This document shows positions 4,283-56,992 of a stretch of 64,000 bases of DNA, piece by piece; position 1 is the first letter of the stretch; the number at the start of each line of letters is the position of its first letter. The notes beneath the pieces were generated by a model. The model did not search any database, was not told the origin of the DNA, and saw only the letters and a list, made by a program, of their open reading frames with translations. This DNA is from an uncultured Gammaproteobacteria bacterium (GTDB taxonomy: Bacteria; Patescibacteriota; Patescibacteriia; Patescibacteriales; GWC2-42-12). The stretch spans positions 110,951-174,950 of the forward strand of contig CAZLKB010000003.1 of the NCBI GenBank assembly GCA_964560005.1, given 5' to 3'. Both the position numbers and the translations under genes were made by a program.

Positions 4283-4312
4283 TCCGCCAGAGGCGGATCC
4301 GCCTTTGGCGGA
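4283..4312. repeat. 30-nt GC-rich double-hairpin element, intergenic copy
   Basis: tccgccagaggcgga + tccgcctttggcgga, two tandem 15-nt hairpins. Same unit as at 8169, 15403, 23913, 49791, 55874 and 56267. Confidence 0.85.
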
Positions 4313-6906: not shown

Positions 6907-7332
6907 TTAATTATTATTTTTTTCTGATGAATCAGAATTAGACGAAGATTTTCTGGACTGCTCTTCTTGAAGCTGCGATAACCGGTGCCTGCCACTTTTT
7001 AAATCCATTTCGGTATCAGCGTTAGCACAATAAATACTAAATCTAACTATTTTCTTTTCAAGCTCGGCCAACCATCGAGCTTTCTTGGAAATAATATCGA
7101 CTTTTAACGCCTTCTTTACTATTTCTATGACTTCTATTAGACTGGCAGCCATCAGATCACTTTCCCTTAAACCGTTAAGAAATTCATCGTCGTTTAGGTC
7201 TAATATAGCCGCGACAGACATGGCTATCTTTCTATCATATGGAGTTATGAACGGATCAATCAACTCAGCTTGATTATTAATATAATTAGCCTCATTGCCA
7301 CGATTGAAATTTTCAAAAAGGTTTTCTGACAT
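6907..7332 (-). CDS. hypothetical acidic/serine-rich protein
   Basis: ORF trimmed to the first ATG (MSENLFENF). The track start at 7359 is a TTG inside the spacer repeat. No recognisable motif. Confidence 0.45.
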   Translation of the reverse strand: MSENLFENFNRGNEANYINNQAELIDPFITPYDRKIAMSVAAILDLNDDEFLNGLRESDLMAASLIEVIEIVKKALKVDIISKKARWLAELEKKIVRFSIYCANADTEMDLKSGRHRLSQLQEEQSRKSSSNSDSSEKNNN

Positions 7333-7398
7333 ATTTATTATTACATTTTTTATTTTCAACTGTCATTTTTAACTTTGAGATTTACATTTTACATTTTC
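7333..7398. repeat. AT-rich post-stop module (aaaatgtaaa dialect)
   Basis: caactgtcatttttaactttgagatttacattttacatttt abuts the permease stop codon. Near-identical strings occur at 28661-28715, 47262-47300 and 49441-49494. Confidence 0.75.
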
Positions 7399-8133
7399 TC
7401 ACTTCCACGACCTTCTCTCAATCACCCTTACATTCAGCCACAAAAACAAAAATATAAAAGAAAAATAATAAATTATATCCTTGGTGTCAATCACGCCTTT
7501 GGCAATATTGTTAAAATGACTGCCTAGGCCTAAAAATTTCATAACCGGGACGAGCAAGGCTGGCGAACTGGCTAAAACGAAATCAGCGCCGATTATGAAA
7601 GCGAAAAAACAAGCCACCAGGCCTAAAATAAAAGCGATAATTTGATTCTTCGTTAAGCTGGAAATAAATAAGCCTAAAGCTAAATACGAACCGCCCAAAA
7701 ATAAGGCGCCTAAATAGCTTCCGATCACCGGCCCTTTATCCAGATTGCCCAGCCAGGCGATGCTTAAGGGCATGGTAAGCGAAAGCAGCAAACTGAAAAA
7801 TAAAAAGGTTAAAGCGCTGAAAAATTTAGCTAATACCACTTGCCAATCGGTTAAGGGCAAAGTCAATAAAAATTCAATCGTGCCGCTTTTCTTTTCTTCG
7901 GCCCAAAGCCTCATAGTAATAGCCGGCGCTAAAAATAAAAAAATCCAGGGCAAAAGCGAAAAATAATTTCTCATTGAGGCTTGGCCAACCAGGAAAAAAG
8001 AGTTAAAAAACAGCCAATTGCCGACGATTAAAAACACACCGATAAAAATATAAGCAATCGGAGAATTAAAGTAGGACATTAATTCTTTTTTAAATAATAT
8101 GTAGATGGTTTTTAGATACTGTGGTTTTGACAT
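7399..8133 (-). CDS. ABC-2 type transporter permease (GldF-like)
   Basis: Six predicted TM helices. Trimmed to ATG (MSKPQYLK), because the track start is a TTG inside the gaaaatt repeat. Adjacent to the ABC ATPase. Confidence 0.75.
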   Translation of the reverse strand: MSKPQYLKTIYILFKKELMSYFNSPIAYIFIGVFLIVGNWLFFNSFFLVGQASMRNYFSLLPWIFLFLAPAITMRLWAEEKKSGTIEFLLTLPLTDWQVVLAKFFSALTFLFFSLLLSLTMPLSIAWLGNLDKGPVIGSYLGALFLGGSYLALGLFISSLTKNQIIAFILGLVACFFAFIIGADFVLASSPALLVPVMKFLGLGSHFNNIAKGVIDTKDIIYYFSFIFLFLWLNVRVIERRSWK

Positions 8134-8168: not shown

Positions 8169-8198
8169 TCCGCCCAAGGCGGATCAGCCTCGGGCTGA
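8169..8198. repeat. 30-nt GC-rich double-hairpin element, intergenic copy
   Basis: tccgcccaaggcgga + tcagcctcgggctga. The arms differ from other copies but stay self-complementary. Confidence 0.8.
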
Positions 8199-8384
8199 CA
8201 AACAATGACCAATAAATCAATGACCAATTTTCAAAACAAGGCACAATCTTGCTCATTGAAAATTTAATCATTAAAAATTGTTTAAAAATTACTTGCCTAC
8301 CGGCAGACGGGAATTTAAAATTATTAAATTAAACATTTTGCATTTTGAACTGTCATTTTTCATTTTGATCTTTTCATTTTACAT

Positions 8385-9314
8385 TTACTTCGTCAGTTCC
8401 CTGAATACATTCTCCAGGCTGGCGCTCTTCCTGCTGAATTCCAAAATGCTCCAATTATTTTTCATCACCGTCATAGATAAATATTCCCTTAAATCCACGC
8501 CGGCTTTGGGCTCGATTTCATAGCCGTAAATGTCTTCGGCCTCCTTGTCTTTAACCTCAACATTCGCCACATTCTCCATTTCTTTAAGCTGTTTAATAAT
8601 TTCCGCCTGCGGTCCTTTAATTTTAACATAAATCATTTCTACTCCGCCGAGCTGGCTAGATAATTCTTTGGGGCTGCCTTGCCCGACAATCTTTCCTTGA
8701 TTGATAATTATTACCCGGTCGCATGTGGCGCTGACCTCGCTTAGAATATGAGTAGAAAATATTACGGTTTTCTCCCGGCCGATTTCTTTGATTAAATCTC
8801 TAATTTCTACAATCTGATTCGGATCCAGTCCGGTAGTCGGCTCGTCCAAAATTAAAATATCCGGCTGGTGCATGATCGCTTGGGCTAAACCAACGCGCTG
8901 GCGAAAACCTTTAGACAATTCATCAATCGGCTGGCGCAATACCTTGGTCAAACCGCAAATTGAAACCACCCTGCCGATTCTTTCTTTAATAGTATTTTTT
9001 TCCAACGAACGAATTTCGGCAATAAATTTAAGATATTCAAACACCCTCATATCTTCATAAAGCGGCACGGTTTCAGGTAAATAGCCGATTTTTTTTCTGG
9101 TAGCTAAAGAATTGGCGGCTACATCTACGCCGTCAATCAAAATTTGGCCTGAAGTCAATGGCCAAAAAGAAGTAATAATCTTCATGGTGGTGGTCTTACC
9201 GGCTCCGTTCGGACCTAAAAAGCCTAAAATTTCACCTTTCTTTACCGAAAAGCTGATATCATTTAAAACTAAGCGATCGCCGAATTTTTTTGTTAAATTT
9301 TTTATCTCTATCAT
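8385..9314 (-). CDS. ABC transporter ATP-binding protein (GldA-like)
   Basis: Walker A GPNGAGKTT, signature LSKGFRQR, Walker B ILILDEPTTGLD. Confidence 0.9.
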   Translation of the reverse strand: MIEIKNLTKKFGDRLVLNDISFSVKKGEILGFLGPNGAGKTTTMKIITSFWPLTSGQILIDGVDVAANSLATRKKIGYLPETVPLYEDMRVFEYLKFIAEIRSLEKNTIKERIGRVVSICGLTKVLRQPIDELSKGFRQRVGLAQAIMHQPDILILDEPTTGLDPNQIVEIRDLIKEIGREKTVIFSTHILSEVSATCDRVIIINQGKIVGQGSPKELSSQLGGVEMIYVKIKGPQAEIIKQLKEMENVANVEVKDKEAEDIYGYEIEPKAGVDLREYLSMTVMKNNWSILEFSRKSASLENVFRELTK

Positions 9315-14436: not shown

Positions 14437-15351
14437 TCAAACCTTGGAATACTTCCCTACAGCTACCAGGCTGGCTAAAAAATTAACCAAAGTTACGGCT
14501 AAAAATTCCAAACCGAAAATAGCGAAAAAATTATTATTATAATATTCTAAAATATTAACCTCAAAACCGGCAAAGAAACTGGCTAAATACGGCTGAGAAA
14601 AGCTTAATAGAGGATATAGTATGGTTATAATAGCCGCTACCCCTATCAGCGCATAAATTATACCGGAGATTAAATAAGGCGCACGGATGAACCAGGTAGA
14701 CGCTCCCACCAATTTCATAATGCCGATCTCTCGCCTATGGGTATAAATCGCCACCCGCACGGTGTTATAGACGACCAAGATGGTTATCAATACAAATATC
14801 AGACTGATAAATAACCCGATCTCGCTGGCCTTTTCGGTTAGACTGTTAATCTTTGTCAGCATGGCTTTATGGTCGTCAAAATTCCTGGATTCAATAATCT
14901 GATCATCAAACTTATTCAAGCTGGCAATCAAGCTTTCATAATCATCAACATCTTTAGGTTTAATCACTAAGCTCGGCGATAAGGGGTTATTGCCTAATTC
15001 CAATAAGGCTTGCAGTATTTCTTGATTATTCTGATGCTTATCTCTGAAGTCCTCAATCGCGGCCTGCTGAGAGGTATAAACCACTTCTTTAACAGAATCA
15101 ATTTCTCCGATTTTATTTTTCAAAGCTAAAATTTTGCTCTCCTCGGTATTTGATTTTAAATATAAACTGATATCTACCTTTTCCTTGACCGCGCTAATGG
15201 CGGTTGAACCTAATACTTTTACCACCAATAATATATTTACCGATAATAAAGCTAGAATAATAATAATCAGGGTGATGATAGAAAGCCAGATATTGCGAAA
15301 TATATCCTGCAGGCTGAATTTTATCACTCTAAAAAAAGATAGTAAAAACAT
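14437..15351 (-). CDS. ftsX: cell-division ABC permease-like protein FtsX
   Basis: FtsX topology (TM1, large extracytoplasmic loop, three C-terminal TM helices), directly downstream of ftsE. Trimmed to MFLLSFF, because the track N-terminus SAKGGSASGGKIENCLSPDGGKLKI is a read-through of the repeat element. Confidence 0.85.
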   Translation of the reverse strand: MFLLSFFRVIKFSLQDIFRNIWLSIITLIIIILALLSVNILLVVKVLGSTAISAVKEKVDISLYLKSNTEESKILALKNKIGEIDSVKEVVYTSQQAAIEDFRDKHQNNQEILQALLELGNNPLSPSLVIKPKDVDDYESLIASLNKFDDQIIESRNFDDHKAMLTKINSLTEKASEIGLFISLIFVLITILVVYNTVRVAIYTHRREIGIMKLVGASTWFIRAPYLISGIIYALIGVAAIITILYPLLSFSQPYLASFFAGFEVNILEYYNNNFFAIFGLEFLAVTLVNFLASLVAVGKYSKV

Positions 15352-15354
15352 ATG

Positions 15355-15450
15355 GTTAATTTTCAATTTTCCCCCATCCGGGGACAAGCAATTCTCAATT
15401 TTTCCGCCAGAGGCAGATCCGCCTTTGGCGGACAATAAATTTTCAATGCA
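15355..15450. repeat. composite spacer element: ccccatccgggg hairpin + gaaaatt words + 30-nt double hairpin (15403-15432)
   Basis: The reverse complement matches 23883-23994 inside the GT4 gene at >90% identity by eye over about 75 nt (…ggcggaaaaattga[g/a]aattgcttgtccccggatgggggaaaattgaaaatt). Confidence 0.85.
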
Positions 15451-15551
15451 TTAATTTTCAAATAAACGCATCTTTTCTGCGCCTGTTTGAAAATTTAAAC
15501 ATTATATCATTGCAAATTGTTTGAAAATTGTAAATTGTAAATTGAAAATTT

Positions 15552-16232
15552 TTATAGGATATACTTGCCCACCGCCTGATCGCCGACAATCAAGCCATTT
15601 TCAATAGTGATCACTCTTTTCCTCAACTTATTCACCACATCTCGATTATGAGTCACTAAGAGAACCGTGGTGCCGAATTTATTTATTTTTTGCAGAATTT
15701 CAATAATTTCATCGGCATTGATAGAATCCAGATTGCCGGTCGGTTCATCGGCTAAAAAAATCTTGGGCCGATGGACCAGGGCTCGGGCAATAACGGCGCG
15801 CTGCTGTTCGCCGCCGGATACTTCCAGCGGATAGCGATGCATTTTATTTTCCAACCCGACGATTTTTAAAACTTGCGGCACGATGTTATTAATTTTACTT
15901 TGCGGATCGCCGCAAACCTGCAAGGCAAAGCAAACATTTTCAAAGATAGTCTTGCGATGAAGCAATTTAAAATCCTGAAAAACCACGCCGATTTGCCGGC
16001 GCAAAACTGGAATTTCCGACTGACCGATATCGGTAATATCCCAGCCGCCAACGATGATTTTCCCCTGGTTGGGTTTTTCCTCGCCGATTAAAATTTTAAC
16101 CAGGGTGGTTTTACCAGTACCCGACTGCCCGACAATGGAAACAAACTCGCCTGGCTTAATATGCAAATTAACTTTATATAAAGCCTTGATATCCGGCGGG
16201 TATATTTTTGTGATATTTTCAAGTCTGATCAT
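15552..16232 (-). CDS. ftsE: cell-division ATP-binding protein FtsE
   Basis: Walker A GQSGTGKTT, signature VSGGEQQR, Walker B IFLADEPTGNLD. Located upstream of ftsX. Confidence 0.9.
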   Translation of the reverse strand: MIRLENITKIYPPDIKALYKVNLHIKPGEFVSIVGQSGTGKTTLVKILIGEEKPNQGKIIVGGWDITDIGQSEIPVLRRQIGVVFQDFKLLHRKTIFENVCFALQVCGDPQSKINNIVPQVLKIVGLENKMHRYPLEVSGGEQQRAVIARALVHRPKIFLADEPTGNLDSINADEIIEILQKINKFGTTVLLVTHNRDVVNKLRKRVITIENGLIVGDQAVGKYIL

Positions 16233-17849: not shown

Positions 17850-18010
17850 ACATATATAATTATAGCATACTTAATACAAAATTTTCAATTTTCAATTTTT
17901 AAACAATTTACAATTAACTAATGATTAAATTTTCAAACAAAGACCTTATTTATTGTATTGAAAATTGATCATTAAAAAATGTAAAGTGTAAATCTCAAAT
18001 TGAAAATTAT
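17850..18010. repeat. AT-rich inverted-repeat spacer element (gaaaatt dialect)
   Basis: aaaattttcaattttcaatttttaaacaatt ... cattaaaaaatgtaaagtgtaaatctcaaattgaaaatt. Confidence 0.65.
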
Positions 18011-23276: not shown

Positions 23277-24539
23277 TTATATAATTCTAGAAGCACCGCT
23301 GAATAGTTTCAAGTATTCTTTGGCGGTTTTCTCCCAGCTAAATTTTTTCGCCTGCGCTAGACCGCGCGCGATTAATTTATTTCTCAAATTATTATCAGTT
23401 AAAATTTCGGCCATAGCACGAGCCAAGTCATTAATATTATAAGGGTCAACCATTATTGCGGCGTCGCCCGCGACTTCAGGCAAACTGGAGGAGAAGCTGG
23501 CGATTACCGGCAAGCCGCTGGCCATGGCTTCCAGTGGCGGAAAGCCAAAGCCTTCATAAAAGGAAGGGTAAACAAACACGCTCGCCAAATTATATAAATA
23601 AACTTTGTCCTCGCCGTCCACATAGTTTAAAAATTTTATATCATTTTTAAATTCCGACCGCTCCCATTCTTTATAAATGCTTTTGCTTTTCCACCCCCTG
23701 TTCCCGGCGATGACCAACTTTATATTTCTTAATTCTAAATTCTGACTTCTGACTTCATTATAGGCTCTAATTATTCCGTCCACGTTCTTCCGCGGCTCAA
23801 CCGTGCCAAGATAAAGTATAAATTTGTTCGGTAAATTATATTTATTTTTTACTTCCATCAAATTTCGTTCATCAGTATTTTGTTTGAAAATTTGAGAATT
23901 GTGATTTGTTTTTCCGCCATAGGCGGATCCGCCTATGGCGGAAAAATTGAAAATTGCTTGTCCCCGGATGGGGGAAAATTGAAAATTGATTTTCCTGTAT
24001 TCCTCCCCTACCCCCGCGTAGATTACTTTTATGTTACTTTCATTCACTCCGCACAGCTCGACAATATCCCGTTTAGTATTTTCGCTCACTGCCACTATAG
24101 TATTGAAACGCCTAACTAATTTTTTCACATTTACCATGCTATGCCAAAAATTCTTGCGCGCGGAAAAAAATTCTGGATACCTTAAAAATGATAGGTCATG
24201 AACCGCAATTAAGCTCCTAGCGCCCCCCGACATGCCGATAAAATTAATATGAGGCATGAAAAATACATCAACGCCCAGCGCTTGATCTATTTTCGGATAA
24301 TTAAAAAACTTAAAATACAAGTAATTTAATAATTTATTGGGGTAATTATATTTGACTAATTTAACATTATCGGCTGGAAATCGCGGGATACTCAGACAAT
24401 CGCCAAAACAATTATAAAACAGCCGGTATTGGTTATTATTATCCAGCCTTATAATCTCCCTGATTAAATTCAACGCATATTCGGACACGCCGCTATATTG
24501 CGCGTCCATCAGAGTTCGTATGTCAATGCCTATTTTCAT
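23277..24539 (-). CDS. GT4-family glycosyltransferase carrying an in-frame repeat-element insertion
   Basis: N-terminal MKIGIDIRTL and C-terminal GT4 core ILYLGTVEPRKN ... PSFYEGFGFPPLEAMASGLPVI. It also has about 34 extra residues encoded by the repeat at 23883-23994. Confidence 0.8.
   Translation of the reverse strand: MKIGIDIRTLMDAQYSGVSEYALNLIREIIRLDNNNQYRLFYNCFGDCLSIPRFPADNVKLVKYNYPNKLLNYLYFKFFNYPKIDQALGVDVFFMPHINFIGMSGGARSLIAVHDLSFLRYPEFFSARKNFWHSMVNVKKLVRRFNTIVAVSENTKRDIVELCGVNESNIKVIYAGVGEEYRKINFQFSPIRGQAIFNFSAIGGSAYGGKTNHNSQIFKQNTDERNLMEVKNKYNLPNKFILYLGTVEPRKNVDGIIRAYNEVRSQNLELRNIKLVIAGNRGWKSKSIYKEWERSEFKNDIKFLNYVDGEDKVYLYNLASVFVYPSFYEGFGFPPLEAMASGLPVIASFSSSLPEVAGDAAIMVDPYNINDLARAMAEILTDNNLRNKLIARGLAQAKKFSWEKTAKEYLKLFSGASRII
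23883..23994. repeat. composite spacer element inserted inside GT4 CDS (contains 30-nt double hairpin 23913-23942)
   Basis: tttccgccataggcggatccgcctatggcggaaaaattgaaaattgcttgtccccggatgggggaaaattgaaaatt is the reverse complement of the ftsX-upstream element at 15355-15450. Confidence 0.85.
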
Positions 24540-25671: not shown

Positions 25672-25868
25672 AGTATAAATGTAAAGTGTAAAAATCAAAA
25701 TGTAAAATGACAATTAAAAATGCAAAATGTCAATATTTATTATTTTCCCCACCCTCGGGAAACGAGGTGGGACAAAAAATTTTGAATTGTCACGCCCAGT
25801 GAAATTCGCTTTGCGATTATTTCACGGAGTCAATTTTTAACTTTGACTTTTACATTTTCAACTCTTTA

Positions 25869-27290
25869 TCATTCTGCTTTTCTTCTCCTGATTATCGCCA
25901 GCGGCGTTCTAAATATGATGGATAAGTCTAAAAGAATCGACCAATTTTCAATATAATAGCTGTCCAATTTAACCTCGTCTTCAAAGCTTAAATCGCTTCT
26001 GCCGGAAATTTGCGCCAGTCCGGTAATGCCGGGTTTAACCGTTAAAACTTTAGTATGGCGGCGCTCATATTTGGCGACTTCTCTGGGCTGGTGCGGCCTG
26101 GGCCCGACTAGGCTCATATTACCCAGCAATACATTGATAAATTGCGGCAATTCATCAATACTCCAGCGCCTGATAAATTTACCCACGCTGGTCAATCTAG
26201 GATCGCCGGCGATTTTATATACCGGCCCGGCCTTGGTATTTTTTTCTTCAATTAATTTTTTTTCGAACTCTAAGGCCTGATCTTGGCCGTAGTCATCGCC
26301 GACGCAATACTGGCAGACCATAGACCTGAATTTAAATAATTTAAAAACGCCGTTCTTAGACACCCGGTCGTTTTTATATATTACCGGCCCGCGTGAATTT
26401 AACTTAATTATGAGCATAGTGACAATAAAAACCGGTGAAAAAAGTATTATTAAGAATAAAGAACCGATTATATCAAGCAGCCTTTTTATTATCTTGCCCC
26501 AGCCGTCCAGCGGAGTTTTTTTTACCGAGACAATCGGAATGCCGGCGATTTCGGCAACTTCCGTTTTTAAAACTTTGGCGCCGAGCAGATCGGCCGCGTA
26601 CTGAAAGGTAATATGATTTTCATCGGCAAAATCAAACAGCCGAAGCACCTCGGCTTTGCTTAAATTAGGATCGCTTTGCATAATTTCATCAACCCCGTTT
26701 GACTTTAAAAAATCGGAAAAATCCTTTTCTGATTCCAGATTAAAATTATTAAATCGTTTGATGATTTTATAACCGGAATTTTTTCGGCTGGAAAACTCGT
26801 GGATTAAAATATCGGCGGTCTTGCTGTTGCCGACCAAGACTATATTATGAACGCCGATGCCATAATTCAATAAAATTCTTTGAATGGATCTGATAATGAT
26901 ACGAGCCGCGCTAATATAGAATATCGCGATCAGCCAGCCGGCTAAGACTATAAAACGAGAGGAAAAAAGTTCTCTAAAAACAAAAATTAAAACTACAATC
27001 AGCATTAAGCCGGTTGAACAAGCCAATATCACCCGATAAATCTCAATGCTTAAACTGCGCGATCCTTTGATGCTGTACAGCCCGGCTAAAGCAAAAATAA
27101 TCAGCCAGGCAGCGGCGATGAGCAATAAAATTTGAAAATACTCGCTAAAAGGCAGGCTGAAAATCACCGGCCTGATTTCAGCCGCCAGGCTGGTAAACCT
27201 AAGATAATAAGCCGAGGTGCCGGCTAAAATTATCATTAAAAAATCCAGCGGTACGAGTAAAAAGGAAAAAAGAAGTTCTGATTTCTTCAT
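25869..27290 (-). CDS. undecaprenyl-phosphate sugar phosphotransferase (WbaP/EpsL-type initiating transferase)
   Basis: Four N-terminal TM helices plus the C-terminal bacterial sugar transferase domain: RGPVIYKNDRVSKNGVFKLFKFRSM, DELPQFINVLLGNMSLVGPRP, KPGITGLAQ. Confidence 0.85.
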   Translation of the reverse strand: MKKSELLFSFLLVPLDFLMIILAGTSAYYLRFTSLAAEIRPVIFSLPFSEYFQILLLIAAAWLIIFALAGLYSIKGSRSLSIEIYRVILACSTGLMLIVVLIFVFRELFSSRFIVLAGWLIAIFYISAARIIIRSIQRILLNYGIGVHNIVLVGNSKTADILIHEFSSRKNSGYKIIKRFNNFNLESEKDFSDFLKSNGVDEIMQSDPNLSKAEVLRLFDFADENHITFQYAADLLGAKVLKTEVAEIAGIPIVSVKKTPLDGWGKIIKRLLDIIGSLFLIILFSPVFIVTMLIIKLNSRGPVIYKNDRVSKNGVFKLFKFRSMVCQYCVGDDYGQDQALEFEKKLIEEKNTKAGPVYKIAGDPRLTSVGKFIRRWSIDELPQFINVLLGNMSLVGPRPHQPREVAKYERRHTKVLTVKPGITGLAQISGRSDLSFEDEVKLDSYYIENWSILLDLSIIFRTPLAIIRRRKAE

Positions 27291-27412
27291 ATTAAAGCCA
27301 ATTAAATGCTAATGAAAAACGAATTAAAGCGAATTTATTGATCTGGTTTATGAACTCATTCGTTTTAATTCGTTTTAATTCGCGGCTAATTCGTTTTTAT
27401 ATTTAACTAATC

Positions 27413-27975
27413 TCAGGGCAAGCTATAAGCCGGATTCTGTTCCGCCAATTGGCGGAGATGATCATCTATCTAGCCATGATGTTGCCATCATGGTCAAGCG
27501 AGCCACTTTTCGTTACACCGTAAAAACGGCGTAGTTTGCTCTTGCTCCAGGTAGGGTTTGCCGCGTCTCTCTGTCGCCAGAGGACGAATCCTGTAATTTA
27601 AGTTAATCGGATATCCTTTATAACCCAAATTTCAGAATACTTTTCACCTTTCACCGCTGCTGCGCAGCAGAAATCCCAATAGCCAAGAGCCAACATCCAA
27701 ACAAATTTCAAATTCAAATTGCCGAAATATAAAATTAATTTATATTTGAGTATAGAAATTTGGAATTTATTTGGACATTGGAAATTGAAAATTGGTCATT
27801 CCGCTGCGGAGCAGCGGTTAGTATTGTCTCTGTGGCACTTTCCCTGCTCCGCTATAAACGGAGCGGTGGATATTATCCATTACCATTTTCCAGCGCATAA
27901 TGCGCTTTTAGAGTCCGGACTTTCCTCGCCGATTAAAATAAAATTTTAACCGGTGTAATCATCCGCTTACCCTGA
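27413..27975 (-). ncRNA. rnpB: RNase P RNA (bacterial type A) with greatly expanded AT-rich P12 region
   Basis: On the minus strand, CR-I is GAGGAAAGTCCGGACTC (rc of 27911-27927), CR-V is ACAGAATCCGGCTTATAG (rc of 27423-27440) and P1 is agggtaagc/gcttgccct. GTGCCACAGAGACAA and GGTGAAAGGTGAAAAG resemble the E. coli M1 P10/11-J11/12 strings. Confidence 0.85.
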
Positions 27976-28640: not shown

Positions 28641-28715
28641 CAATGTAAAATTAAAAATTTCAAATTTTATCATTTTACATTTTCAACTGTCATTTTTAAC
28701 TTTGATATTTACATT

Positions 28716-30440
28716 TTAAACTTTTTTCATGTCCACAATCTTCATCTGAACCGAGCGCCGACCGTTAAACTCATTAAATTCTAAATAATAAACCAAATCA
28801 ACCTGATCGCCGATTTTAAAATCTTTATAATTTTCAGCTTGGTTAAAGGCGACCGCCCAAAGTTGCCCGAACCTAAACTTTATATGCTGGGCGGCAGCCC
28901 CCATGCTGGTTTTGTCCATTATAACCGTAGCCCGGCTTAAAAATTTCGGCTTTTCGTTTTCCTCGCCGTATGGTTCGAATTTTTCTAAAGTGCCAACCAG
29001 CTTATCATTAATATCTGATAAAGTAATTTCCGCCTCAATTAAAATTTTCGGTTGAAGCTCTACTCCGCTTAAGGCCTCCGAGGCGATTTTTTTTATTTTT
29101 TTCGTAAACTCGGCTAAATCTGCTTGGCTTTTTACCGTGAACCCGCAAGCGGCCGCGTGACCGCCAAATTTTTTTAAATGACTGCCTAATTTCTCAACCG
29201 CCCTAATTACATTAAATTCTTCTATGCTTCTGCCGGAGCCTTTAATTTCTCCGCCAAACTGGGTAATCACTAAACACGGGCGATAATATTCTTCGCAAAG
29301 CCTCCCGGCTACCAAGCCCATCACGCCTTCGGGCCAAGGCTCCGCTCCGGGCTCGGATAAACTGGGGCAAACCATAACCAGAATCTTATCATCAAGCATG
29401 TTTGCTTCTACCATTTTCTTGGCTGACGAAAATATTTCTTCGGTAATCTTCTGCCTGGCCTGATTTTTTTTATTAAGTTTCTCCGCGATTTCTCCGGCTT
29501 CGGTTCTATCTTTGGTAATTAATAATTTATAAGCCGTGTTGGCGTGATCCATTCTACCGGCCGAATTTAAACGCGGCGCAATCTGCCAGCCGATCTGCCA
29601 AGCTTTGACGGCTTTATCGCTATTAGCGTTAATTTTAGCGGCTTTAATCAATTCGTTAATGCCCAGCCTCTTGCCCTGATTAATGATTTCTATCCCCCGG
29701 CTGGCTAAAATTCGATTTTCTCCGACCAAATCAACCATATCGGCCACCGTGCCTATCGCGACTAAATCCAAAATTTTTTCCTCCAGCCTAACCTTTAAAT
29801 TATCGGCTAATTTCGCGGATCCTATCAGGGCTTTGGCTAACTTATAAGCCACGCCGACTCCGGCTAAAAACTTAAACGGATAACTGCCGGCTTTAGGATT
29901 AATGGTTAAACAATCCGGCCAATCGCTCTTCTCCGCCGGAGCCTCGTGATGATCGGTAATAATTATTTCCAGCCCCAAGCTTTTCGCGTATTCAACTTCC
30001 CGCTTGTTGCGAATGCCATTGTCAACCGTGACAATCAATTTAACCCCGTTTTTAGCCAACTCGTCAATCGCTTTTTTATTAAGGCCATAGCCCTCGCTGA
30101 CTCTAGCCGGAATATAAACGCTGGTCTTGGCTTTAAAAATATTTAATATCTCCACCAGCACGGCCGCGGAGGTTACCCCGTCGGCGTCATAATCCCCGTA
30201 AATAACGATTAAGTTTTGCGCTTTAATGTGTTTAATAATTAAAGACACAGCCGCCTTCATATCAGTAAATAAATATGGATCAAGCAAGTCGGCCATATCA
30301 GGCTGTAAAAACGATTCTATATCTTTTTTACAAGTTAAGCCACGATTAAAAAGCAGCTGCTGTATAATTCCGCCAAATTCAGCATTTTGTTTTGCAAAAT
30401 CAGCTGAAACTACGGGTTTTAACTGCCATTTATTTTGCAT
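28716..30440 (-). CDS. recJ: single-stranded-DNA-specific exonuclease RecJ
   Basis: DHH motifs GDYDADGVTS, TVDNG, ITDHH and the DHHA1 motif GGHAAACG. Trimmed to ATG (MQNKWQLK). Confidence 0.9.
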   Translation of the reverse strand: MQNKWQLKPVVSADFAKQNAEFGGIIQQLLFNRGLTCKKDIESFLQPDMADLLDPYLFTDMKAAVSLIIKHIKAQNLIVIYGDYDADGVTSAAVLVEILNIFKAKTSVYIPARVSEGYGLNKKAIDELAKNGVKLIVTVDNGIRNKREVEYAKSLGLEIIITDHHEAPAEKSDWPDCLTINPKAGSYPFKFLAGVGVAYKLAKALIGSAKLADNLKVRLEEKILDLVAIGTVADMVDLVGENRILASRGIEIINQGKRLGINELIKAAKINANSDKAVKAWQIGWQIAPRLNSAGRMDHANTAYKLLITKDRTEAGEIAEKLNKKNQARQKITEEIFSSAKKMVEANMLDDKILVMVCPSLSEPGAEPWPEGVMGLVAGRLCEEYYRPCLVITQFGGEIKGSGRSIEEFNVIRAVEKLGSHLKKFGGHAAACGFTVKSQADLAEFTKKIKKIASEALSGVELQPKILIEAEITLSDINDKLVGTLEKFEPYGEENEKPKFLSRATVIMDKTSMGAAAQHIKFRFGQLWAVAFNQAENYKDFKIGDQVDLVYYLEFNEFNGRRSVQMKIVDMKKV

Positions 30441-35155: not shown

Positions 35156-35371
35156 GGTAAAATGTAAAATTAAAATCTCAAAATGAAAAATGACAATGAA
35201 AAGTGTAAAATTTTAATTTCTAATATCTAATCAATAACCAGTTTTTAATGTCTAATTATCAAAAATTAGAAATTGGTCATTGGGATTTGACCCGCCTCGC
35301 GTCGACGAGCGACAGCGAGTCGAGGCGGGTTAGGTCAATTAGGAATAAGAGTAATCAGACATTTTGCATTT

Positions 35372-36451
35372 TTAACTGTCATTTTTCATTTTGAGATTTA
35401 CATTTTTCATTAAAAGTTCTTTCACTTCTCTGGCAATCATCAGCTCCTCATCGGTCTTTATCGCCAGCATGGGCAACGAGCCTAAGCATTTGATTTTTTT
35501 CATGACTTGATTTCGCGTCACCGGATTACCCGAGCCGATACTGCCGGTAAAAATTATCGCTTCCGCCTTGCCTTCAAGACCGACCCAATAGGCGCCAATA
35601 TATTTAACCAGGCGATTAATAGCTAAATCAAAAGCCGACTTCGCCTCCTGATCGCCCAGCGAGGCGCTGGCCAGAAGTTCTTGATAATCGGTCAAGCCGG
35701 TTAAGCCTTTTATTCCGGAATTTTTATTTAATAAATTATAAAGCTGATCCACTTTAGCCTGGTTTACTTCTCCGGGTAGATTTTTTAAAAGTTTAAATAT
35801 TATCCCCGGATCCAAATCTCCGGATCTGGTTATCATCACTAGTCCCTCCAGCGGCGTAAAGCCCATAGAAGTATCAATCGGCTTGCCGTTTTTTACGGCG
35901 GTAATGGACCAGCCGCCGCCTAAGTGGCAGCTAATCAAGCTTATCTTATTAATCTTCTTTTTTAACAGTCTGGCGGCCTCGGCCATAACGAATTCATGGG
36001 AAATACCGTGAAAACCGTAGCGATGAATATTATATTGCTCGGTGATCTCGCGAGGCAAGGCGTAAAATTTCGCCGTATCCGGCAAATCGTGAAAAAAAGC
36101 CGTATCAAAAACCGCGACCTGTTGCGCCTGCGGTAAATAGCTAATCGCCGCTTTTATGCCGGCTAAATTATAAGGGTTATGCAGCGGAGCCAGATCGTTC
36201 AACCGTTCCAATTCAATCAAATTGCTGTCATTGATTAACAAGGGTTTAAAAAACTTATTACCGCCATGAACCACCCTATGGCCGACTGCCGCCAGATCTC
36301 TTAAATCTCCGATTTCCCTTAAAACCAATTTTATCGCCGTAAAATGATCTTTTACATTTTTAATCTGGCCCTGCTTAATTTCTTTTTCATCATGGCTAAA
36401 TAATTTATATTTAACCGAAGTAGAACCGGAATTTAGAGATAAAATAGACAT
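35372..36451 (-). CDS. ackA: acetate kinase (compact form)
   Basis: ILSLNSGSTSVKYKLF, HRVVHGG, FDTAFFHDLP, YGFHGISH, SCHLGGGWS, TSMGFTPLEGLVMITRSGDLDP, IFTGSIGSGN. The last 12 codons (MKNVNLKMKNDS) read into the spacer repeat. Confidence 0.85.
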   Translation of the reverse strand: MSILSLNSGSTSVKYKLFSHDEKEIKQGQIKNVKDHFTAIKLVLREIGDLRDLAAVGHRVVHGGNKFFKPLLINDSNLIELERLNDLAPLHNPYNLAGIKAAISYLPQAQQVAVFDTAFFHDLPDTAKFYALPREITEQYNIHRYGFHGISHEFVMAEAARLLKKKINKISLISCHLGGGWSITAVKNGKPIDTSMGFTPLEGLVMITRSGDLDPGIIFKLLKNLPGEVNQAKVDQLYNLLNKNSGIKGLTGLTDYQELLASASLGDQEAKSAFDLAINRLVKYIGAYWVGLEGKAEAIIFTGSIGSGNPVTRNQVMKKIKCLGSLPMLAIKTDEELMIAREVKELLMKNVNLKMKNDS

Positions 36452-39867: not shown

Positions 39868-40013
39868 AATTACACAAAATTTTCAATTTTTAATTTTTAA
39901 TTTCTAAACAATGATTCAATGTCTAAATTTTTAAACCGAATTAGATAGACATTTGAAAATTGAAAATTAATTCATTGAAAATTGTTTAAAAATTGAGAAT
40001 TGAAAATTGAAAA
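39868..40013. repeat. AT-rich inverted-repeat spacer element (gaaaatt dialect, conserved core)
   Basis: aatttctaaacaatgattcaatgtctaaattttt ... cattgaaaattaattcattgaaaattgtttaaaaattgagaattgaaaattgaaaatt. Near-identical cores occur at 42138-42280 and 58150-58313. Confidence 0.85.
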
Positions 40014-41321
40014 TTATTTTATATTTTCCTCAATCTCCATTAATCTATTATATTTCGCCAATCTCTCGCCTCTGGATAAGGAGCCGGCCTTGATATAATC
40101 GGCTTGAACCGCCACGGCCAAGTCGGCGATAAAGTCGTCCGTGGTTTCTCCGGAACGATGCGAAATAATGATTTTATAGTTATGCCTTTGAGCCAGCTTA
40201 ATGCAAGCGATAGTTTCCGATAAGGTACCGACTTGATTGGGTTTTATTAAAATAGCGTTGGCGGAGTTTTCTTTTAAGCCTCGCCTTAAGCGCTCAACAT
40301 TGGTAACGAATAAATCATCTCCTACCAGCATTAATCTGTCACCCAGCTCCTTATTTAATTTTTGCCAGCCGGCCCAATCGTCTTCAGCCAAAGGATCTTC
40401 AATGAAAATAATCGGGTATCTTCTAAACCATTCGGCATATAGACCGGACAAGGTGCCGGCCGTGAAGCTGGCCTGATCCAGCTTAAAGATATACTTGCCG
40501 TCTGCTTTATTATAAAGCTGGGACGAACCGACATCTATGCCCAAATTAACCTCTTCGCCCGGTTTATAGTTTGATTTAATAATCGCCGTCATGATTAATT
40601 CTATGGCCTGGATGCTGGAGGTCATATCGGGCGCGTAGCCGCCCTCACTGCCAACATCAGTATCGTATCCGGCCCGCTTCAAGATAACGCCCAAAGTATG
40701 AAAAATCTCCGCGCCCATCCTTACTTGTTCGCTTAGACTGGTATTCTTGGTAGGAATTATCATAAATTCCTGAAAATCCAAATTAGTGTCAGCGTGTTTT
40801 CCGCCGTTAAAAATATTAAAACAAGGAGTAGGTAATTTTACCCCCTTTAACAAAGGCCCGTCTCGCTTGGCGGGAGCCGAGGCGGAGGGTGAGGGGGATT
40901 TAAAGGCAAATTTATCGGCGATATATTCATAAAGCTCTTCATTGTTTGCTAAGGCGCCGGCGCGAGCGCAAGCTAGCGACACGGACAGAACCGCATTAGC
41001 GCCTAACTTGCTCTTATTCTTGGTGCCGTCCAGTTTAATCATCAATTCATCTATCTTTTCTTGTTTACCAATATCAAAACCCGCCAGCTTCGGCGCGATT
41101 TTCTTTTCAACATTTTTTACGGCATTTAATACTCCCAGACCGCCATATCTTTTTTTGTCCCCGTCGCGCAATTCTAAAGCTTCATGTACGCCGGTGGACG
41201 CCCCCGACGGCACGCCGGCCTTTGTCCACAAACCATTGTCCAGCATCACTTTAGCTTCAACCGTGGGGTTGCCTCGCGAATCTAAAATTTCGCGAGCTGA
41301 AATTTTTTTAATTTTAGGCAT
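40014..41321 (-). CDS. eno: enolase, with about 20-aa GC-hairpin-derived insertion
   Basis: MPKIKKISAREILDSRGNPTVEA, FNIFNGGKHAD, SHRSGETTD, IKAGSLSRGERLAKYN. Confidence 0.95.
   Translation of the reverse strand: MPKIKKISAREILDSRGNPTVEAKVMLDNGLWTKAGVPSGASTGVHEALELRDGDKKRYGGLGVLNAVKNVEKKIAPKLAGFDIGKQEKIDELMIKLDGTKNKSKLGANAVLSVSLACARAGALANNEELYEYIADKFAFKSPSPSASAPAKRDGPLLKGVKLPTPCFNIFNGGKHADTNLDFQEFMIIPTKNTSLSEQVRMGAEIFHTLGVILKRAGYDTDVGSEGGYAPDMTSSIQAIELIMTAIIKSNYKPGEEVNLGIDVGSSQLYNKADGKYIFKLDQASFTAGTLSGLYAEWFRRYPIIFIEDPLAEDDWAGWQKLNKELGDRLMLVGDDLFVTNVERLRRGLKENSANAILIKPNQVGTLSETIACIKLAQRHNYKIIISHRSGETTDDFIADLAVAVQADYIKAGSLSRGERLAKYNRLMEIEENIK
40842..40901. repeat. GC-rich hairpin repeat inside eno CDS
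   Basis: The minus-strand sequence tccgcctcggctcccgccaagcgagacgggcc matches the intergenic tccgcctcggcttcgcctttaggcgagacgggcc at 2842-2875. It encodes KSPSPSASAPAKRDGPLLKG. Confidence 0.7.
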
Positions 41322-49770: not shown

Positions 49771-49772
49771 GG

Positions 49773-49834
49773 TCGGGATACTGGGAATTGCCAGCCCGAG
49801 GCTGGTCCGCCTTGGGCGGAAACCCAGTCTACAC
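49773..49834 (-). pseudogene. duplicated 3-prime fragment of tRNA-Pro interrupted in the T loop by the 30-nt double-hairpin element
   Basis: tcgggatactgggaattg (18 nt) and aacccagtctacac (14 nt) are identical to 49879-49910 of the intact tRNA-Pro. They are separated by ccagcccgaggctggtccgccttgggcgga (49791-49820). No 5-prime half is present. Confidence 0.8.
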
Positions 49835-49878
49835 TCGCCGTTACACGGTTAAACTGACATCCTAATTAATATTACATG

Positions 49879-55141: not shown

Positions 55142-56992
55142 TTAACTTCTCTTCTTATAAGTCGTATGTAAAACTTGATGCTCTAATTTGCCCTTTTCTT
55201 TTAGCCAACTTAAGGCTAGAATCGCCTCTTTATTTTCATGCGCCCGCCTTATTTTATTGCCTGAATCAATTTTATACAGCGCGGCCAATCTTTTTTTCCT
55301 AATCTCCGCCGTGGTGGGAATCGGCTGGCCGCCGCCGCCGATACAGCCGTCCGGGCAGGCCATAACTTCAATATAGTCAAAATCTTTTAAATTGTCCAAA
55401 ATCGGCTGGATGTTGCCGATACCGTTCACCACCGCTACTCTGATTTTTTTATCCCCCATCATTAATTCGGCTTTTTTTACCCCGTTGAGCCCCCGGACAT
55501 CTTCAAACTCAATTCTGGTATTGCAAAACTTATTATTTAATTTTTCCGCTTTTTTTAAATCTCGGCAAACCGTGCCTTGCGCGGTCTCCATCAAATATTC
55601 GGCCGTCCTTAGGGCTGATTCCATAACCCCGCCGGTAGCGCCGTAAATCGCCGCCGCCCCGCTGGACTCTCCGAGAGGGTTATCGGCGGGCAGAGATTTT
55701 AGGCCGGTAAAATTTATTCTATTTTTTTTAATCAGCCAGGCCAGTTCGCGGGTGGTAATTACCTGATCAATCGGTAAAATTCCTTTTATCTTAAGCTCTT
55801 TGCGGCCGGCTTCAAATTTCTTGGCGGTACAGGGCATAACGGACACTACGGTTATGTTCTTCGGATTAAAATTTCGGCCCAAGGCCGATCCGCCTTGGGC
55901 GGACATTTTCTCGGCCCAATAAGTTTTGATAATACCGGCGCTATGCACCTGGGGGCTCTTAGCGGTTGTCATGTTGGGAATTAAATCAGGCCGAAAAAAC
56001 TCCACATACTTTATCCAAGCCGGACAGCAGGAAGTAAACATGGGCAAACCCTGACCGCTCTTTATCCTCTCTAGGAGCTCCTCAGCTTCAACGATAGTAG
56101 TGATGTCAGCGCCAAAATTTACGTCAAAAACATAATTAAAGCCTAACTTTTTCAAAGCCGCCACTACCTGGCCGGTCATCACCTTGCCGGCGGGAACGCC
56201 GAATTCTTCGCCGATGCTAACCCTGATTGAAGGCGCGAATTGCGCTACGACAATTTTACCATCTTTTCGGCCCGAGGCCGATCCGCCTCGGGCGGATAAA
56301 GCTTTTTCTACCAGCTCCCAATCGGAGTGCTCCTGCGCCGCGCCCACCGGGCAATGAACGGCGCATTGGCCGCAATAGATACAGTCGGTTTTTTTCTTAC
56401 TCTTATCACGAAAAGAAAAAACGCTTTTCTCCGTAACCGGCACCACTTCCTGCTCGGTCCCCTTGCCTCTAAGCTCCAAAAAATTTATCTTCTGCAAACT
56501 TGAACATGCTTCTATGCAATTGCGGCAATCAATGCATTGGCTGCCGTCAATCTCCACGGCGTTGGCGAATTTATAAACCTTTCTCTTGCCCTTGCGATCT
56601 TTAAATCTGGTAATTTCTATCTTATATTTATCGGCTAATTCCAATAGTTTACAATTTACCCGCCAAATGCAGGTCGGGCATCTTTCAATATGTTCGGCGA
56701 AAATTAACTCTATATTTAAATTGCGCGATCTTTTTACCCGCTCGGTGTCGGTCTTAATAACCATGCCATCTTCAACTACGGTATTACAAGATGTTACCAG
56801 CTTAGCCGGTCCTGAATTAGCCGCGGAAGAAACTTCAACGACGCAAACCCGGCAATTGGCTTTAACCGAAAGGTCAGGGTGAAAGCAAAGGCTGGGCAGA
56901 TCAATTCCGTGATCCCTGGCCGCTTTCATTATGGTCGTACCCTGATTACAGACGATTTCTTTGCCGTCTATATTAATTTTTATTTTTTTCAT
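55142..56992 (-). CDS. hydA: [FeFe]-hydrogenase catalytic subunit (CpI-like M3 architecture)
   Basis: N-terminal 2Fe-2S ferredoxin-like domain, HIERCPTCIWRVNC, two CxxCxxCxxxCP motifs, and H-cluster motifs FTSCCPAW, MPCTAKKFE and EVMACPDGCIGGGGQP. Confidence 0.9.
   Translation of the reverse strand: MKKIKINIDGKEIVCNQGTTIMKAARDHGIDLPSLCFHPDLSVKANCRVCVVEVSSAANSGPAKLVTSCNTVVEDGMVIKTDTERVKRSRNLNIELIFAEHIERCPTCIWRVNCKLLELADKYKIEITRFKDRKGKRKVYKFANAVEIDGSQCIDCRNCIEACSSLQKINFLELRGKGTEQEVVPVTEKSVFSFRDKSKKKTDCIYCGQCAVHCPVGAAQEHSDWELVEKALSARGGSASGRKDGKIVVAQFAPSIRVSIGEEFGVPAGKVMTGQVVAALKKLGFNYVFDVNFGADITTIVEAEELLERIKSGQGLPMFTSCCPAWIKYVEFFRPDLIPNMTTAKSPQVHSAGIIKTYWAEKMSAQGGSALGRNFNPKNITVVSVMPCTAKKFEAGRKELKIKGILPIDQVITTRELAWLIKKNRINFTGLKSLPADNPLGESSGAAAIYGATGGVMESALRTAEYLMETAQGTVCRDLKKAEKLNNKFCNTRIEFEDVRGLNGVKKAELMMGDKKIRVAVVNGIGNIQPILDNLKDFDYIEVMACPDGCIGGGGQPIPTTAEIRKKRLAALYKIDSGNKIRRAHENKEAILALSWLKEKGKLEHQVLHTTYKKRS
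55874..55903. repeat. 30-nt GC-rich double-hairpin element inside hydA CDS
   Basis: tcggcccaaggccga + tccgccttgggcgga, translated in frame as SAQGGSALGR. Confidence 0.85.
56267..56296. repeat. 30-nt GC-rich double-hairpin element inside hydA CDS
   Basis: tcggcccgaggccga + tccgcctcgggcgga, translated in frame as SARGGSASGR. Confidence 0.85.

Follow-up and report, generated by a model that had tools for sequence, protein, structure and literature searches.

A nested palindromic repeat in the inter-domain linker of a Falkowbacteria glycosyltransferase and the wide distribution of its 30-nt core

The analysed stretch comprises 64,000 nucleotides (nt) of contig CAZLKB010000003.1 (positions 110,951 to 174,950 of the forward strand; GenBank assembly GCA_964560005.1) and is called the window throughout. 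Its minus strand carries an intact gene for a 420-residue family 4 glycosyltransferase (GT4; GT-B fold) of Falkowbacteria, and the inter-domain linker of this enzyme contains an in-frame segment of 37 codons that recurs, inverted, in the spacer between ftsE and ftsX. The host protein has two linker-joined Rossmann-like domains and a C-terminal Glycos_transf_1 domain with an EX7E motif, read from the sequence as FYEGFGFPPLEAM (E329 to E337). PF00534 (Glycos_transf_1) and PF13439 (Glyco_transf_4) were both matched on P0001, a protein identical to that of the window. AlphaFold2 modelled two Rossmann halves (mean predicted local distance difference test (pLDDT) 81.7), and the closest solved folds to the model were MshA, BshA, WaaG and PimA (Foldseek; TM 0.6-0.77). 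Residues 187-218, placed between strand 170-172 and helix 213-233, had a pLDDT below 50 between two confidently folded halves. The insert is thus predicted to form a disordered loop exactly within the inter-domain linker. A first-pass annotation, made from the letters of the window, had proposed a spacer-type composite repeat at this very position, in frame, in a GT4 enzyme, and Pfam, structure matches and the open reading frame (ORF) bear this out.

The extent of the insert was determined by alignment with orthologues whose linker is empty (GVGEEFRK|SADE in P0007, GVGEEFRI|NVD in P0003; L143 and L144 at the DNA level), a check that the annotation had suggested. It had assumed an addition of about 34 residues at 23883-23994; the addition is indeed in frame, with an actual length of 37 residues at 23880-23990 (Table 1), and the 420-residue ORF runs uninterrupted across it. 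In a repeat search, window 23879-23987 was found to be an inverted copy of 15358-15466 (109 nt, 86% identity), the longest inverted repeat of the window, which confirms the inverted relation postulated between the GT4 segment and an element at 15355-15450. Within this pair, a 75-nt core is 94.7% identical (blastn), in agreement with the more than 90% over about 75 nt that had been judged by eye. The repeat is therefore genuine, and to call its two copies identical was an overstatement: the core contains four differences, one in the 45 positions of the scaffold part and three in the 30 nt of a double hairpin (DH), an asymmetry that may reflect conversion at the level of the DH. The loops of the DH also differ, being ATA/TAT in the GT4 copy and AGA/TTT in the ftsX-side copy, as at 4283. 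A coincidence of low-complexity gaaaatt words was ruled out by two cores, since the 34-mer TTGCTTGTCCCCGGATGGGGGAAAATTGAAAATT occurs exactly twice in the window (0 expected, 100 shuffles) and the 28-nt core of the double hairpin has three matches at up to 3 mismatches (0 expected, shuffles). Similarity between the copies stops within 1-3 nt of the insert boundaries, and the repeated unit is therefore a discrete entity rather than an arbitrary piece of the gene.

Three kinds of sequence make up the composite (Table 1): AATTTTC-type heptamer words, a short GC hairpin followed by GGACAAGCAATT, and the DH, which together with its T5/A5 flanks (23909-23946) is a perfect palindrome of 38 nt. The RNA fold energy of the insert is low (z=-6.4); only local hairpins form, without an end-to-end fold of the whole. 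At both composite ends the AATTTTC words stand in the same orientation, so that terminal inverted repeats are lacking. The suggested target-site duplication did not hold up either: the sole flanking direct repeat is the low-complexity word ATTTT (23877-23881 and 23989-23993), whose two starts are 112 nt apart and so miss the insert length of 111 nt by one. The GT4 copy is open in three of six frames (two on the coding strand, one on the plus strand), as had been stated for both copies; the ftsX-side copy, antisense to ftsE/ftsX, is closed by stops in every one of the six. It lies 13 nt upstream of the ftsX ATG (15342, minus strand), downstream of the ftsE stop (15552). No terminator-like site, i.e., a GC hairpin followed by a T-run, was found in 15250-15650. 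Several weak sigma-70-like matches at this copy were not relied on, as the repeat is A+T-rich. An Rfam scan of the window yielded RNase P and tRNAs and no family for the repeats, and at permissive settings nothing matched 23800-24080 apart from generic (miRNA-like) hairpins below threshold.

Table 1. Coordinates of the GT4 insert, its components and related repeats (positions in the window; DH, double hairpin)
Feature	Position	Strand	Evidence or remark
GT4 (GT-B fold) glycosyltransferase gene, 420 aa, intact	23277..24539	-	ORF, Pfam, AlphaFold2, Foldseek
Whole in-frame composite insert, 37 codons, I184-Q220 (INFQFSPIRGQAIFNFSAIGGSAYGGKTNHNSQIFKQ), 111 nt	23880..23990	-	Alignment with empty-site orthologues
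Scaffold-family signature: GC hairpin TCCCCCATCCGGGGA (23961-23975), then GGACAAGCAATT (23952-23963)	23952..23975	-	GGACAAGCAATT shares the last three bases of the hairpin
30-nt DH, TCCGCCATAGGCGGA + TCCGCCTATGGCGGA	23913..23942	.	Encodes SAIGGSAYGG
3' heptamer-word tail of the scaffold, coding strand (aaaacaaatcacaattctcaaattttcaaacaa)	23880..23912	-	Conserved at DNA level in window, L004, L001, L145 and L003
Peptide stretch FSAIGGSAYGGK			Part of the GT4 insert
Module CCCCCATCCGGGG-GGACAAGC			Part of the composite
Sister copy of the composite, ftsE-ftsX spacer	15358..15466	+	Non-coding, antisense to ftsE/ftsX
Parts of the sister copy	hairpin 15370-15384; DH 15403-15432		DH with one stem mismatch
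DH, intergenic	4283..4312	.	Between convergent genes
DH, intergenic, unlike stems CCGCC + CAGCC	8169..8198	.	Embedded in heptamer scaffold; folds as two separate hairpins
DH inside [FeFe]-hydrogenase, site 1	56267..56296	-	In frame, SARGGSASGR
Second DH inside [FeFe]-hydrogenase, site 2	55874..55903	-	SAQGGSALGR
DH in duplicated tRNA-Pro 3' half	49791..49820	.	At T-loop position
Spacer structures of ~140 nt	5227-5377, 15484-15550, 17868-18009, 39873-40020, 42132-42279, 58144-58297, 63560-63654		
Family with core ATTTTTAACTTTGAGATTTACATTTTACATT	7322-7412, 8312-8391, 25833-25880, 28649-28739, 35338-35428, 47229-47319, 49423-49513		

For the age of the insert, 120 GT4 orthologues were retrieved, the named ones originating from Candidatus Falkowbacteria, Patescibacteria or unclassified metagenome-assembled genomes (MAGs). 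The 119 other than the window's own have from none to about 86 extra residues at the linker; 41 of them have at least 10, and these inserts are typically translated heptamer words (NFQFS, ITNDQ, KSQIPNP...). Four insert-bearing orthologues and the two empty ones (L143, L144) were compared at the DNA level. In L004 (P0002), L001 (P0008), L145 (P0012) and L003 (P0004), whose GT4 proteins are only ~73-77% identical to that of the window, the junctions are identical to the window's, and all five share the 5' sequence aaattttcaattttc as well as a distinctive 3' tail with the sequence caaat[ct][ac]caatt[ct][ct]caaatttt/ccaaac[ta]aaat. Between these conserved ends stands a GC hairpin that differs from species to species and is followed by GGACAAGCAATT (CCCCCATCCGGGG in the window, CCTGTACAAGGCAGG in L004); L001 has the hairpin CTGGTCGAGCCAGG plus a decayed second copy, L145 a longer palindrome (CCCGCCCTTGCAATGCAAGGCGGG) and L003 none. 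The DH is absent from all four, its junction in the window reading caatttt|DH|aaaacaaatc against caattttcaatcaaatc in L004. As the scaffold already occupies the site in orthologues of ~73-77% identity, occupancy of the site is old, and the DH, lacking in each of them, is a recent nested insertion. L001 and L003 are also syntenic through ftsE-ftsX; in these two sister genomes the spacer consists of 18 nt or of 133 nt of unrelated sequence, and the composite is absent. The spacer copy is hence a recent duplicate or gene-conversion partner and not an obvious donor. The DH and the copy beside ftsX are both confined to this lineage, and copying, if it had a direction, is as likely to have run from gene to spacer as from spacer to gene.

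These comparisons bear on the annotation's view that the high identity marks a recent event, in its simplest form a one-step transposition of the whole composite from the ftsX-side spacer, or a similar one, into an empty GT4 linker. Such a transposition would account for the 94.7% identity of the cores, for the end of similarity at the insert boundaries and for the existence of empty-site orthologues. It conflicts with the homologous scaffold, identical junctions and GT4-specific 3' tail of the more distant orthologues, with the 3' tail of the ftsX-side copy, which resembles the orthologue tails less than these resemble one another, with the sister spacers that lack the element and with the want of a credible target duplication. 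The orthologue DNA alignment has thus largely refuted this model, and we hold it to be quite improbable. What is recent is the nesting of the DH and the copying or homogenisation of the composite.

A further possibility is that the linker is a hot spot into which the repeat family of each lineage has inserted independently, the shared scaffold being the family consensus. A simple neighbour-joining tree of the GT4 orthologues intersperses filled and empty genes, so that precise losses or repeated gains at the hot spot must have occurred, and is compatible with a single origin as well as with several. The hairpin of each species matches its own multi-copy family, and other sites in the GT4 protein and in a hydrogenase (see below) have been hit repeatedly as well. 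In the GT4 orthologues of Falkowbacteria two more hypervariable insertion hot spots were seen, after ...LKLD and after ...NFIGLS (alignment columns ~62-90 and 186-222), with inserts that look repeat-derived (SKSPQPPSKIPPTPFIKGELLKG, TPNPPQPLPQRV...). Against recurrent insertion stand the identical junction codons and those details of the 3' tail that are not heptamer words (caaat[ct][ac]caatt[ct][ct]caaatttt), as they are common to the GT4 orthologues and missing from other copies of the family. We consider recurrent insertion unlikely.

Copies of the scaffold with its hairpin were also found in other genes. In a metagenome scan for CAATTTTC-N10-20-GGACAAGCAATTnTCAA, the N stretch being the hairpin, 19 copies were located at 18 loci, and none of these seems to be a GT4 linker. 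Thirteen of the 19 lie within an open frame that runs into protein-like flanks, by eye resembling MurG, a radical-SAM enzyme, cysteinyl-tRNA synthetase, a RecG-type helicase and an O-antigen-ligase-like membrane protein. The copies use three reading frames (NFQFSLVEPGQAIFNFQ, FSIFPGRARTSNFQF, SIFNFPCTRQDKQFSIF), and their stems covary (CCTGC/GCAGG, CCTGG/CCAGG, CCCGAA/TTCGGG). The GT4-linker hairpin of P0008 equals a multi-copy hairpin in contigs of related metagenome samples (L129, L138), which points to homogenisation within the lineage, by bursts or by gene conversion. All open-frame intragenic copies are on the CAATTTTC strand. (AATTTTC)n is free of stops in every frame, and (GAAAATT)n contains TGA in every frame within 21 nt; because the reverse GAAAATT words bring stops, genes contain the spacer architecture only as this half and in this orientation, and the ftsX-side copy is closed in all frames. 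As judged from these sequences, the scaffold with its GC hairpin forms a dispersed repeat family of Falkowbacteria genomes that occupies spacers and, in frame, many genes.

The DH consists of two 15-nt units of the form T-CCGCC-nnn-GGCGG-A (TCCGCC-nnn-GGCGGA) in inverted relation; with 30 nt it measures exactly 10 codons, so that the frame is never shifted. The window holds seven copies (repeat family D11), i.e., three in spacers, one in the GT4 insert, two in a hydrogenase and one in a tRNA-Pro fragment. In total, 12 units were counted in the window against 0 in ~190 kb of other Falkowbacteria loci, which indicates a patchy distribution among relatives. The hydrogenase is a HydA-like [FeFe] enzyme of 616 aa (55142-56992, minus strand), and both of its DHs fall into gaps of the alignment with a solved HydA (PDB 8a6t). 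Site 1 is empty (VEKAL|KNKSK) in 59 of 59 orthologues listed, the full motif SAxG[GR]SAxG[GR] was found there in none of 119 orthologues, and the DH at this site is unique to the present genome among the orthologues compared. Site 2 has a full DH in P0130, a DH with a further insert in P0128 and a partial remnant in P0162 and P0179, and is empty in the remaining orthologues among those listed; in another Falkowbacteria MAG (L085) a DH has the 3' flank of the window's site 2 and shows one loop difference.

The tRNA-like fragment at 49770-49850 (minus strand) is a partial duplicate of the 3' half of tRNA-Pro(CGG), comprising the 3' strand of the acceptor and the T arm, and lies downstream of tRNA-Pro at a distance of ~90 nt. 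Short duplications of tRNA 3' halves are typical of integration scars. An interrupted tRNA gene at this position was rejected, as ARAGORN found only the intact tRNA-Pro after deletion of the DH. Together with the T-loop of the intact gene (49878-49949; GGGAATTG|AACCCAG), the fragment forms a filled/empty pair within the window. Exactly 30 nt were added, with no target duplication, both here and at hydrogenase site 1.

The distribution of the DH beyond Falkowbacteria was determined with the pattern TCNGCCNNNGGCNGATCCGCCNNNGGCGGA (22 specified bases; ~0.07 chance matches expected in 596 Gb by our own calculation). At least 120 loci were obtained from a collection of species-representative genomes, labelled as ~15 phyla. 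By a count of record titles, 53 of the DH loci listed bear labels of Patescibacteria classes. The other labels among the matches listed are Omnitrophota, Ignavibacteriota, Bacteroidota, Kiritimatiellae, Lentisphaerae, Verrucomicrobiota, Planctomycetales, Elusimicrobia, Zixibacteria, Chloroflexota, Deltaproteobacteria/Thermodesulfobacteriota, Bdellovibrionales, Firmicutes and 'Gammaproteobacteria', and some matches are unlabelled. One Streptomyces match without the typical flanks and loops is probably due to chance. Several matches lie on large contigs with non-CPR (candidate phyla radiation) gene content, such as a 1.63-Mb Ignavibacteriota contig (L055), and both contigs of very large size and a complete chromosome record contain copies (L055, L065). 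A motif that by eye resembles the C-terminal domain of the type IX secretion system is split by the DH in L034 (NPF|SAGGRSAYGG|NPSTTIRF). A technical artefact as the source of the cross-phylum matches was rejected on the grounds of compensatory loop and stem variation, the large contigs and the complete chromosome, and because orthologous DH sites are common to independent assemblies (window, L085). The pattern was also present in 12 stretches of 11 predicted viral contigs (IMG/VR, L146-L157), mostly as a CAGCC/CCGCC variant that has a TGA in the SAxGG frame and mostly in non-coding context; these contigs are possible vehicles of horizontal spread, or possibly misclassified host contigs.

As regards the GT4 insert itself, an assembly artefact (a repeat-induced MAG chimera) or a pseudogene was considered, since the contig was assembled from a metagenome and repeats can mislead assemblers. 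We regard this as barely credible: the frame and both flanking domains are intact, identity to the orthologues outside the insert is 73-77%, homologous inserts occupy the same site in independent assemblies from other samples, and the DH recurs in the large contigs and the complete chromosome record named above.

Structure and flanks of the DH were examined in 121 instances. In 115 of them, against 56.5 expected (p=9e-31), the base at the variable stem position can pair with its partner in the same unit; the loops follow NRA and TYN, and exact complementarity between them was seen in only 15. Where both stems are CCGCC, a single long hairpin is thermodynamically preferred, yet the covariation and the copies with unlike stems show that the conserved form is two independent hairpins. 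The DH thus belongs structurally with the double-hairpin elements, whose two neighbouring GC-rich hairpins fold independently and are maintained through compensatory change. T-runs precede it and A-runs follow it, with a flank consensus of TTT|AAA (TTT 62/82/60%, AAA 59/81/53%).

Within genes the DH shows a strong frame preference. Fifty-four of 125 instances lie in ORFs of at least 250 aa, and 41 of these 54 are read in the SAxGG-SAxG[GR] frame (p=2e-10); in ORFs of at least 400 aa the SAxGG frame is used in 29 of 33, and among DHs that are free of stops in all six frames in 35 of 41. Hosts identified by eye include the RNA polymerase beta' subunit (RpoC), DNA polymerase III alpha (DnaE), aminoacyl-tRNA synthetases, PheT, UvrC and a type I restriction subunit. 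Such a bias is expected from selection on a translated insert and speaks against both bypass by the ribosome and excision from the RNA. The idea that the insert is not translated would involve intron-like removal from the mRNA or ribosome skipping in the manner of the 'byp' elements of Magnusiomyces mitochondria. GC-rich hairpin elements inside genes would fit it, and the byp elements that Lang and colleagues reportedly described in 2014 are of a size like that of the present elements. Patescibacteria are moreover rich in introns according to PMC13011429. A segment that is removed or skipped would be under no constraint on length modulo 3, stops or frame; the intragenic copies are all multiples of three and stop-free in the host frame, the DH prefers one frame, and no Rfam intron or ribozyme was matched. 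We therefore consider an untranslated insert highly improbable.

The reading that we think probably correct is that a palindromic repeat of the selfish type, itself nested, occupies a permissive site of a working gene, and that the GT4 segment is neither functional GT4 sequence nor a one-step recent insertion. It is carried by the anatomy of the insert, its homology among orthologues, their presence/absence polymorphism, the covariation of the stems, the reading-frame bias and the predicted disorder. An insert that benefits the host, as a longer flexible hinge or through mRNA hairpins between the domain halves (pausing, processing, stability), would be in line with the occupation of the same linker in many species, with stems kept by compensatory change and with the fold energy of the insert RNA (z=-6.4). 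It agrees poorly with identical modules in unrelated genes, spacers, RNase P RNA and a tRNA fragment, with the many orthologues that function without any insert, and with an insert sequence that is unconserved at the protein level and predicted to be disordered. A host function of this kind is, in our judgement, improbable.

In the repeat reading, the insert is built of three layers. The first is a scaffold of AATTTTC heptamer words, and the second the short GC hairpin followed by GGACAAGCAATT that is the signature of the dispersed Falkowbacteria family. The third is the 30-nt DH, an independent mini-element that would insert precisely, preferably between TTT and AAA, and without target duplication; read as TCC-GCC-nnn-GGC-GGA, it encodes Ser-Ala-x-Gly-Gly twice and would so supply a flexible loop. 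The scaffold would have entered the GT4 linker before several Falkowbacteria species diverged. Turnover or homogenisation of the hairpin module would have followed, and the DH would then have landed in the T-rich/A-rich tract of the scaffold in this lineage. Recently, the composite would have been copied to the ftsE-ftsX spacer or would have undergone gene conversion with it. Precise, duplication-free insertion of hairpin DNA is the behaviour of single-strand systems (HUH/Y1; RAYT- or IS200-like). Spread of the elements would presumably proceed through single-stranded hairpin intermediates, gene conversion or both, driven by an activity acting in trans.

Several points weigh against this account. 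Besides the interspersion of filled and empty genes in the tree, the persistence of an insert at the same linker in many species could mean that the host makes use of it. The full composite has two copies in the 64 kb, which fit copying between gene and spacer in either direction. We infer, rather than observe, that the insert is translated and tolerated. The term 'mobile' would draw only on distribution and polymorphism, as terminal inverted repeats or target duplications were not found and no mobilising enzyme came to light in the window, for which no protein-family scan was made. The DH pattern fixed most of the stem bases and thus samples part of the true diversity of the family, and the phylum labels are those of the submitters, so that many MAGs, especially TPA (third-party annotation) bins named 'Gammaproteobacteria', may be mislabelled.

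A more far-reaching view, which we rate as a real possibility short of an even chance, concerns the DH itself (TTT-TCCGCC-NRA-GGCGGA-TCCGCC-TYN-GGCGGA-AAA). It may be an undescribed, horizontally spreading mini-element of 10 codons that inserts precisely and without duplication across uncultivated bacteria (CPR, Omnitrophota, Ignavibacteriota, the Planctomycetes-Verrucomicrobia-Chlamydiae (PVC) group, Chloroflexota and others), seemingly essential genes included (by eye: rpoC, dnaE, tRNA-synthetase), and that survives by virtue of its harmless Ser-Ala-x-Gly-Gly frame. Falkowbacteria would in addition harbour a lineage-specific, modular system resembling the Rickettsia palindromic elements (RPEs) that colonises protein linkers and variable RNA helices. 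In the literature, the DH sequence matched only cloning primers and a search for intragenic repeats of CPR bacteria gave nothing relevant; with the incomplete coverage of these searches, a prior description is possible.

Further repeats were observed in the window. The RNase P RNA gene (27410-27974, minus strand) measures 565 nt against a model of 367 positions. A spacer-type heptamer palindrome of ~145-165 nt (~27665-27810) extends the tip of a helix at model positions 136/137, presumably P12, and a single TCCGCCAATTGGCGGA hairpin (27441-27456) replaces an unpaired stretch near the 3' end; by these insertions the repeat system also colonises structural RNA genes. GAPDH (58314-59345, minus strand) has a 10-residue insertion, ELTPPTPLVR, relative to the T. 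maritima enzyme (1hdg), which coincides with a C6/G6 hairpin (58949-58966). Modules of this type (PTPFIKGE, SPLPPFVKGG) are also seen at the hot spots of GT4 and hydrogenase orthologues and make up another family of palindromic mini-insertions that keep the frame, the second one here.

A stereotyped structure of ~140 nt is present in most spacers, in which inverted arrays of AATTTTC-type words surround a short centre (families D1, D2, D5, D9, D10; Table 1); TTGAAAATTG with up to one mismatch has 93 matches in the window against 22 expected. These structures could have a role as promoters or in regulation, or they could represent in full length the repeat that is halved in the GT4 gene. A second spacer family, with the core ATTTTTAACTTTGAGATTTACATTTTACATT (D4/D7), lies near the start-proximal end of minus-strand ORFs. 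Two spacers 23 kb apart share an inverted repeat of ~75 nt (21608-21685/44881-44955, ~92% identity), AGTCG..GAGTTTTGGCTAAATT.ATTTATTTTTTC.CT.CGGATCAAATTCTTTATGTGC..GCCGGTCAGTCC, which is unrelated to the heptamer or hairpin families. Four adjacent, mutually unrelated GC-rich hairpins (ATTGCGGGCTTGACCCGCAAT, CCCCGCACTTTGCGGGG, GGCGGCTCGTCCGCC, TCGCCTTTAGGCGA) are located at 2790-2863, between the ORFs 1479-2777 and 2904-4235.

If the proposed reading is correct, minimal CPR genomes would tolerate, and be continually reshaped by, tiny palindromic repeats that expand linkers and RNA helices, in parallel to Rickettsia and some mitochondria. Gene calling, protein-family alignments and structure prediction would be affected in these lineages, and odd loops of low complexity (NFQFS..., PPFVKGG, SAxGGSAxGG) would have to be seen as repeat-derived and not as functional motifs. 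The DH would be among the smallest and most widely distributed insertion elements, and its precise, duplication-free insertion would point to a mechanism that might be found by comparing genomes with and without it. Filled and empty sites in conserved genes could serve as ready markers with which strains are tracked and bursts of element activity dated.

Among known systems, REP (repetitive extragenic palindromic) and REPIN sequences are short imperfect palindromes, often inverted doublets, which cause no target duplication, are presumed to have single-strand hairpin intermediates and are mobilised by REP-associated tyrosine transposases (RAYT; IS200/IS605-like Y1) (PMC3116915). Small palindromes, insertion without target duplication, presumed hairpin intermediates and evolution as a family within a genome are common to these and the DH. 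REP and REPIN sequences are extragenic, with a 5' GTAG-type tetranucleotide and a cognate RAYT; the DH, by contrast, is frequent inside genes (54 of 125 in ORFs of at least 250 aa) and is flanked by TTT|AAA, with no GTAG in the flank consensus. Small dispersed repeats of cyanobacteria, which Elhai and colleagues reportedly described in 2008, are said to be ~20-30 nt long, to contain hairpins and to insert precisely in repeats, spacers and genes. They resemble the DH in very small size, hairpin and precise insertion, and differ in sequence and host phylum. Transposable elements of the miniature inverted-repeat kind (MITEs; Correia, ERIC, Nezha) are non-autonomous, multi-copy and sometimes intragenic with in-frame fusions (PMC10969869), all of which they share with the present elements. 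MITEs also have terminal inverted repeats, target duplications and related autonomous insertion sequences, whereas the ends of the composite are direct heptamer words, no duplication is supported for the composite or for the DH (tRNA-Pro pair, hydrogenase site 1), and no parent insertion sequence was seen within the window.

Closer parallels exist in mitochondria and in Rickettsia. The double-hairpin elements, GC clusters and hairpin-forming elements of mitochondria (Allomyces, yeast var1, sponges) are described in PMC2800124 as G+C-rich, with two adjacent hairpins, in A+T-rich genomes; they occur in spacers, in the variable parts of rRNA and now and then in protein genes, have a patchy distribution among relatives, and are without flanking duplications in Allomyces (ibid., citing Paquin et al. 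2000). With the DH they share the short GC-rich double hairpin, the location in spacers, structural RNA and genes, the patchiness and, as far as Allomyces is concerned, the absence of flanking duplication. They are organellar, whereas the DH is found in free-living or episymbiotic bacteria labelled as many phyla, measures 2 x 15 nt, has a strong frame preference and shows no sequence relation to them. RPEs are ~150 bp long and form ten families, with 44 insertions in R. conorii, nearly half of them in ORFs (PMC10969869). Like the present repeats, they are dispersed, found in spacers and unusually often in frame within unrelated housekeeping genes, where the added peptide is compatible with the fold of the host protein. 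In-frame insertion of this type was found here in the GT4 linker, twice in the hydrogenase (at gaps relative to 8a6t) and in many hosts of the scaffold and the DH. The present system differs in that it resides in Patescibacteria, is modular and nested, and has a GT4 composite that is palindromic only in its hairpin modules; its 30-nt core, the DH, is five times smaller than an RPE and not confined to one genus. An RPE family sequence of ~100-150 bp that is palindromic as a whole is not what was found, as only local hairpins form and the host is a member of the Falkowbacteria, a separation that is made by description and not by alignment with RPE consensus sequences. Membership in any of these families is not claimed, and it is in behaviour that the elements match RPEs and mitochondrial double hairpins. 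The GT4 insert is best described as one nested representative of an RPE-like, modular system of repeats in Falkowbacteria, and its 30-nt core as a copy of a very widely distributed double-hairpin mini-element.

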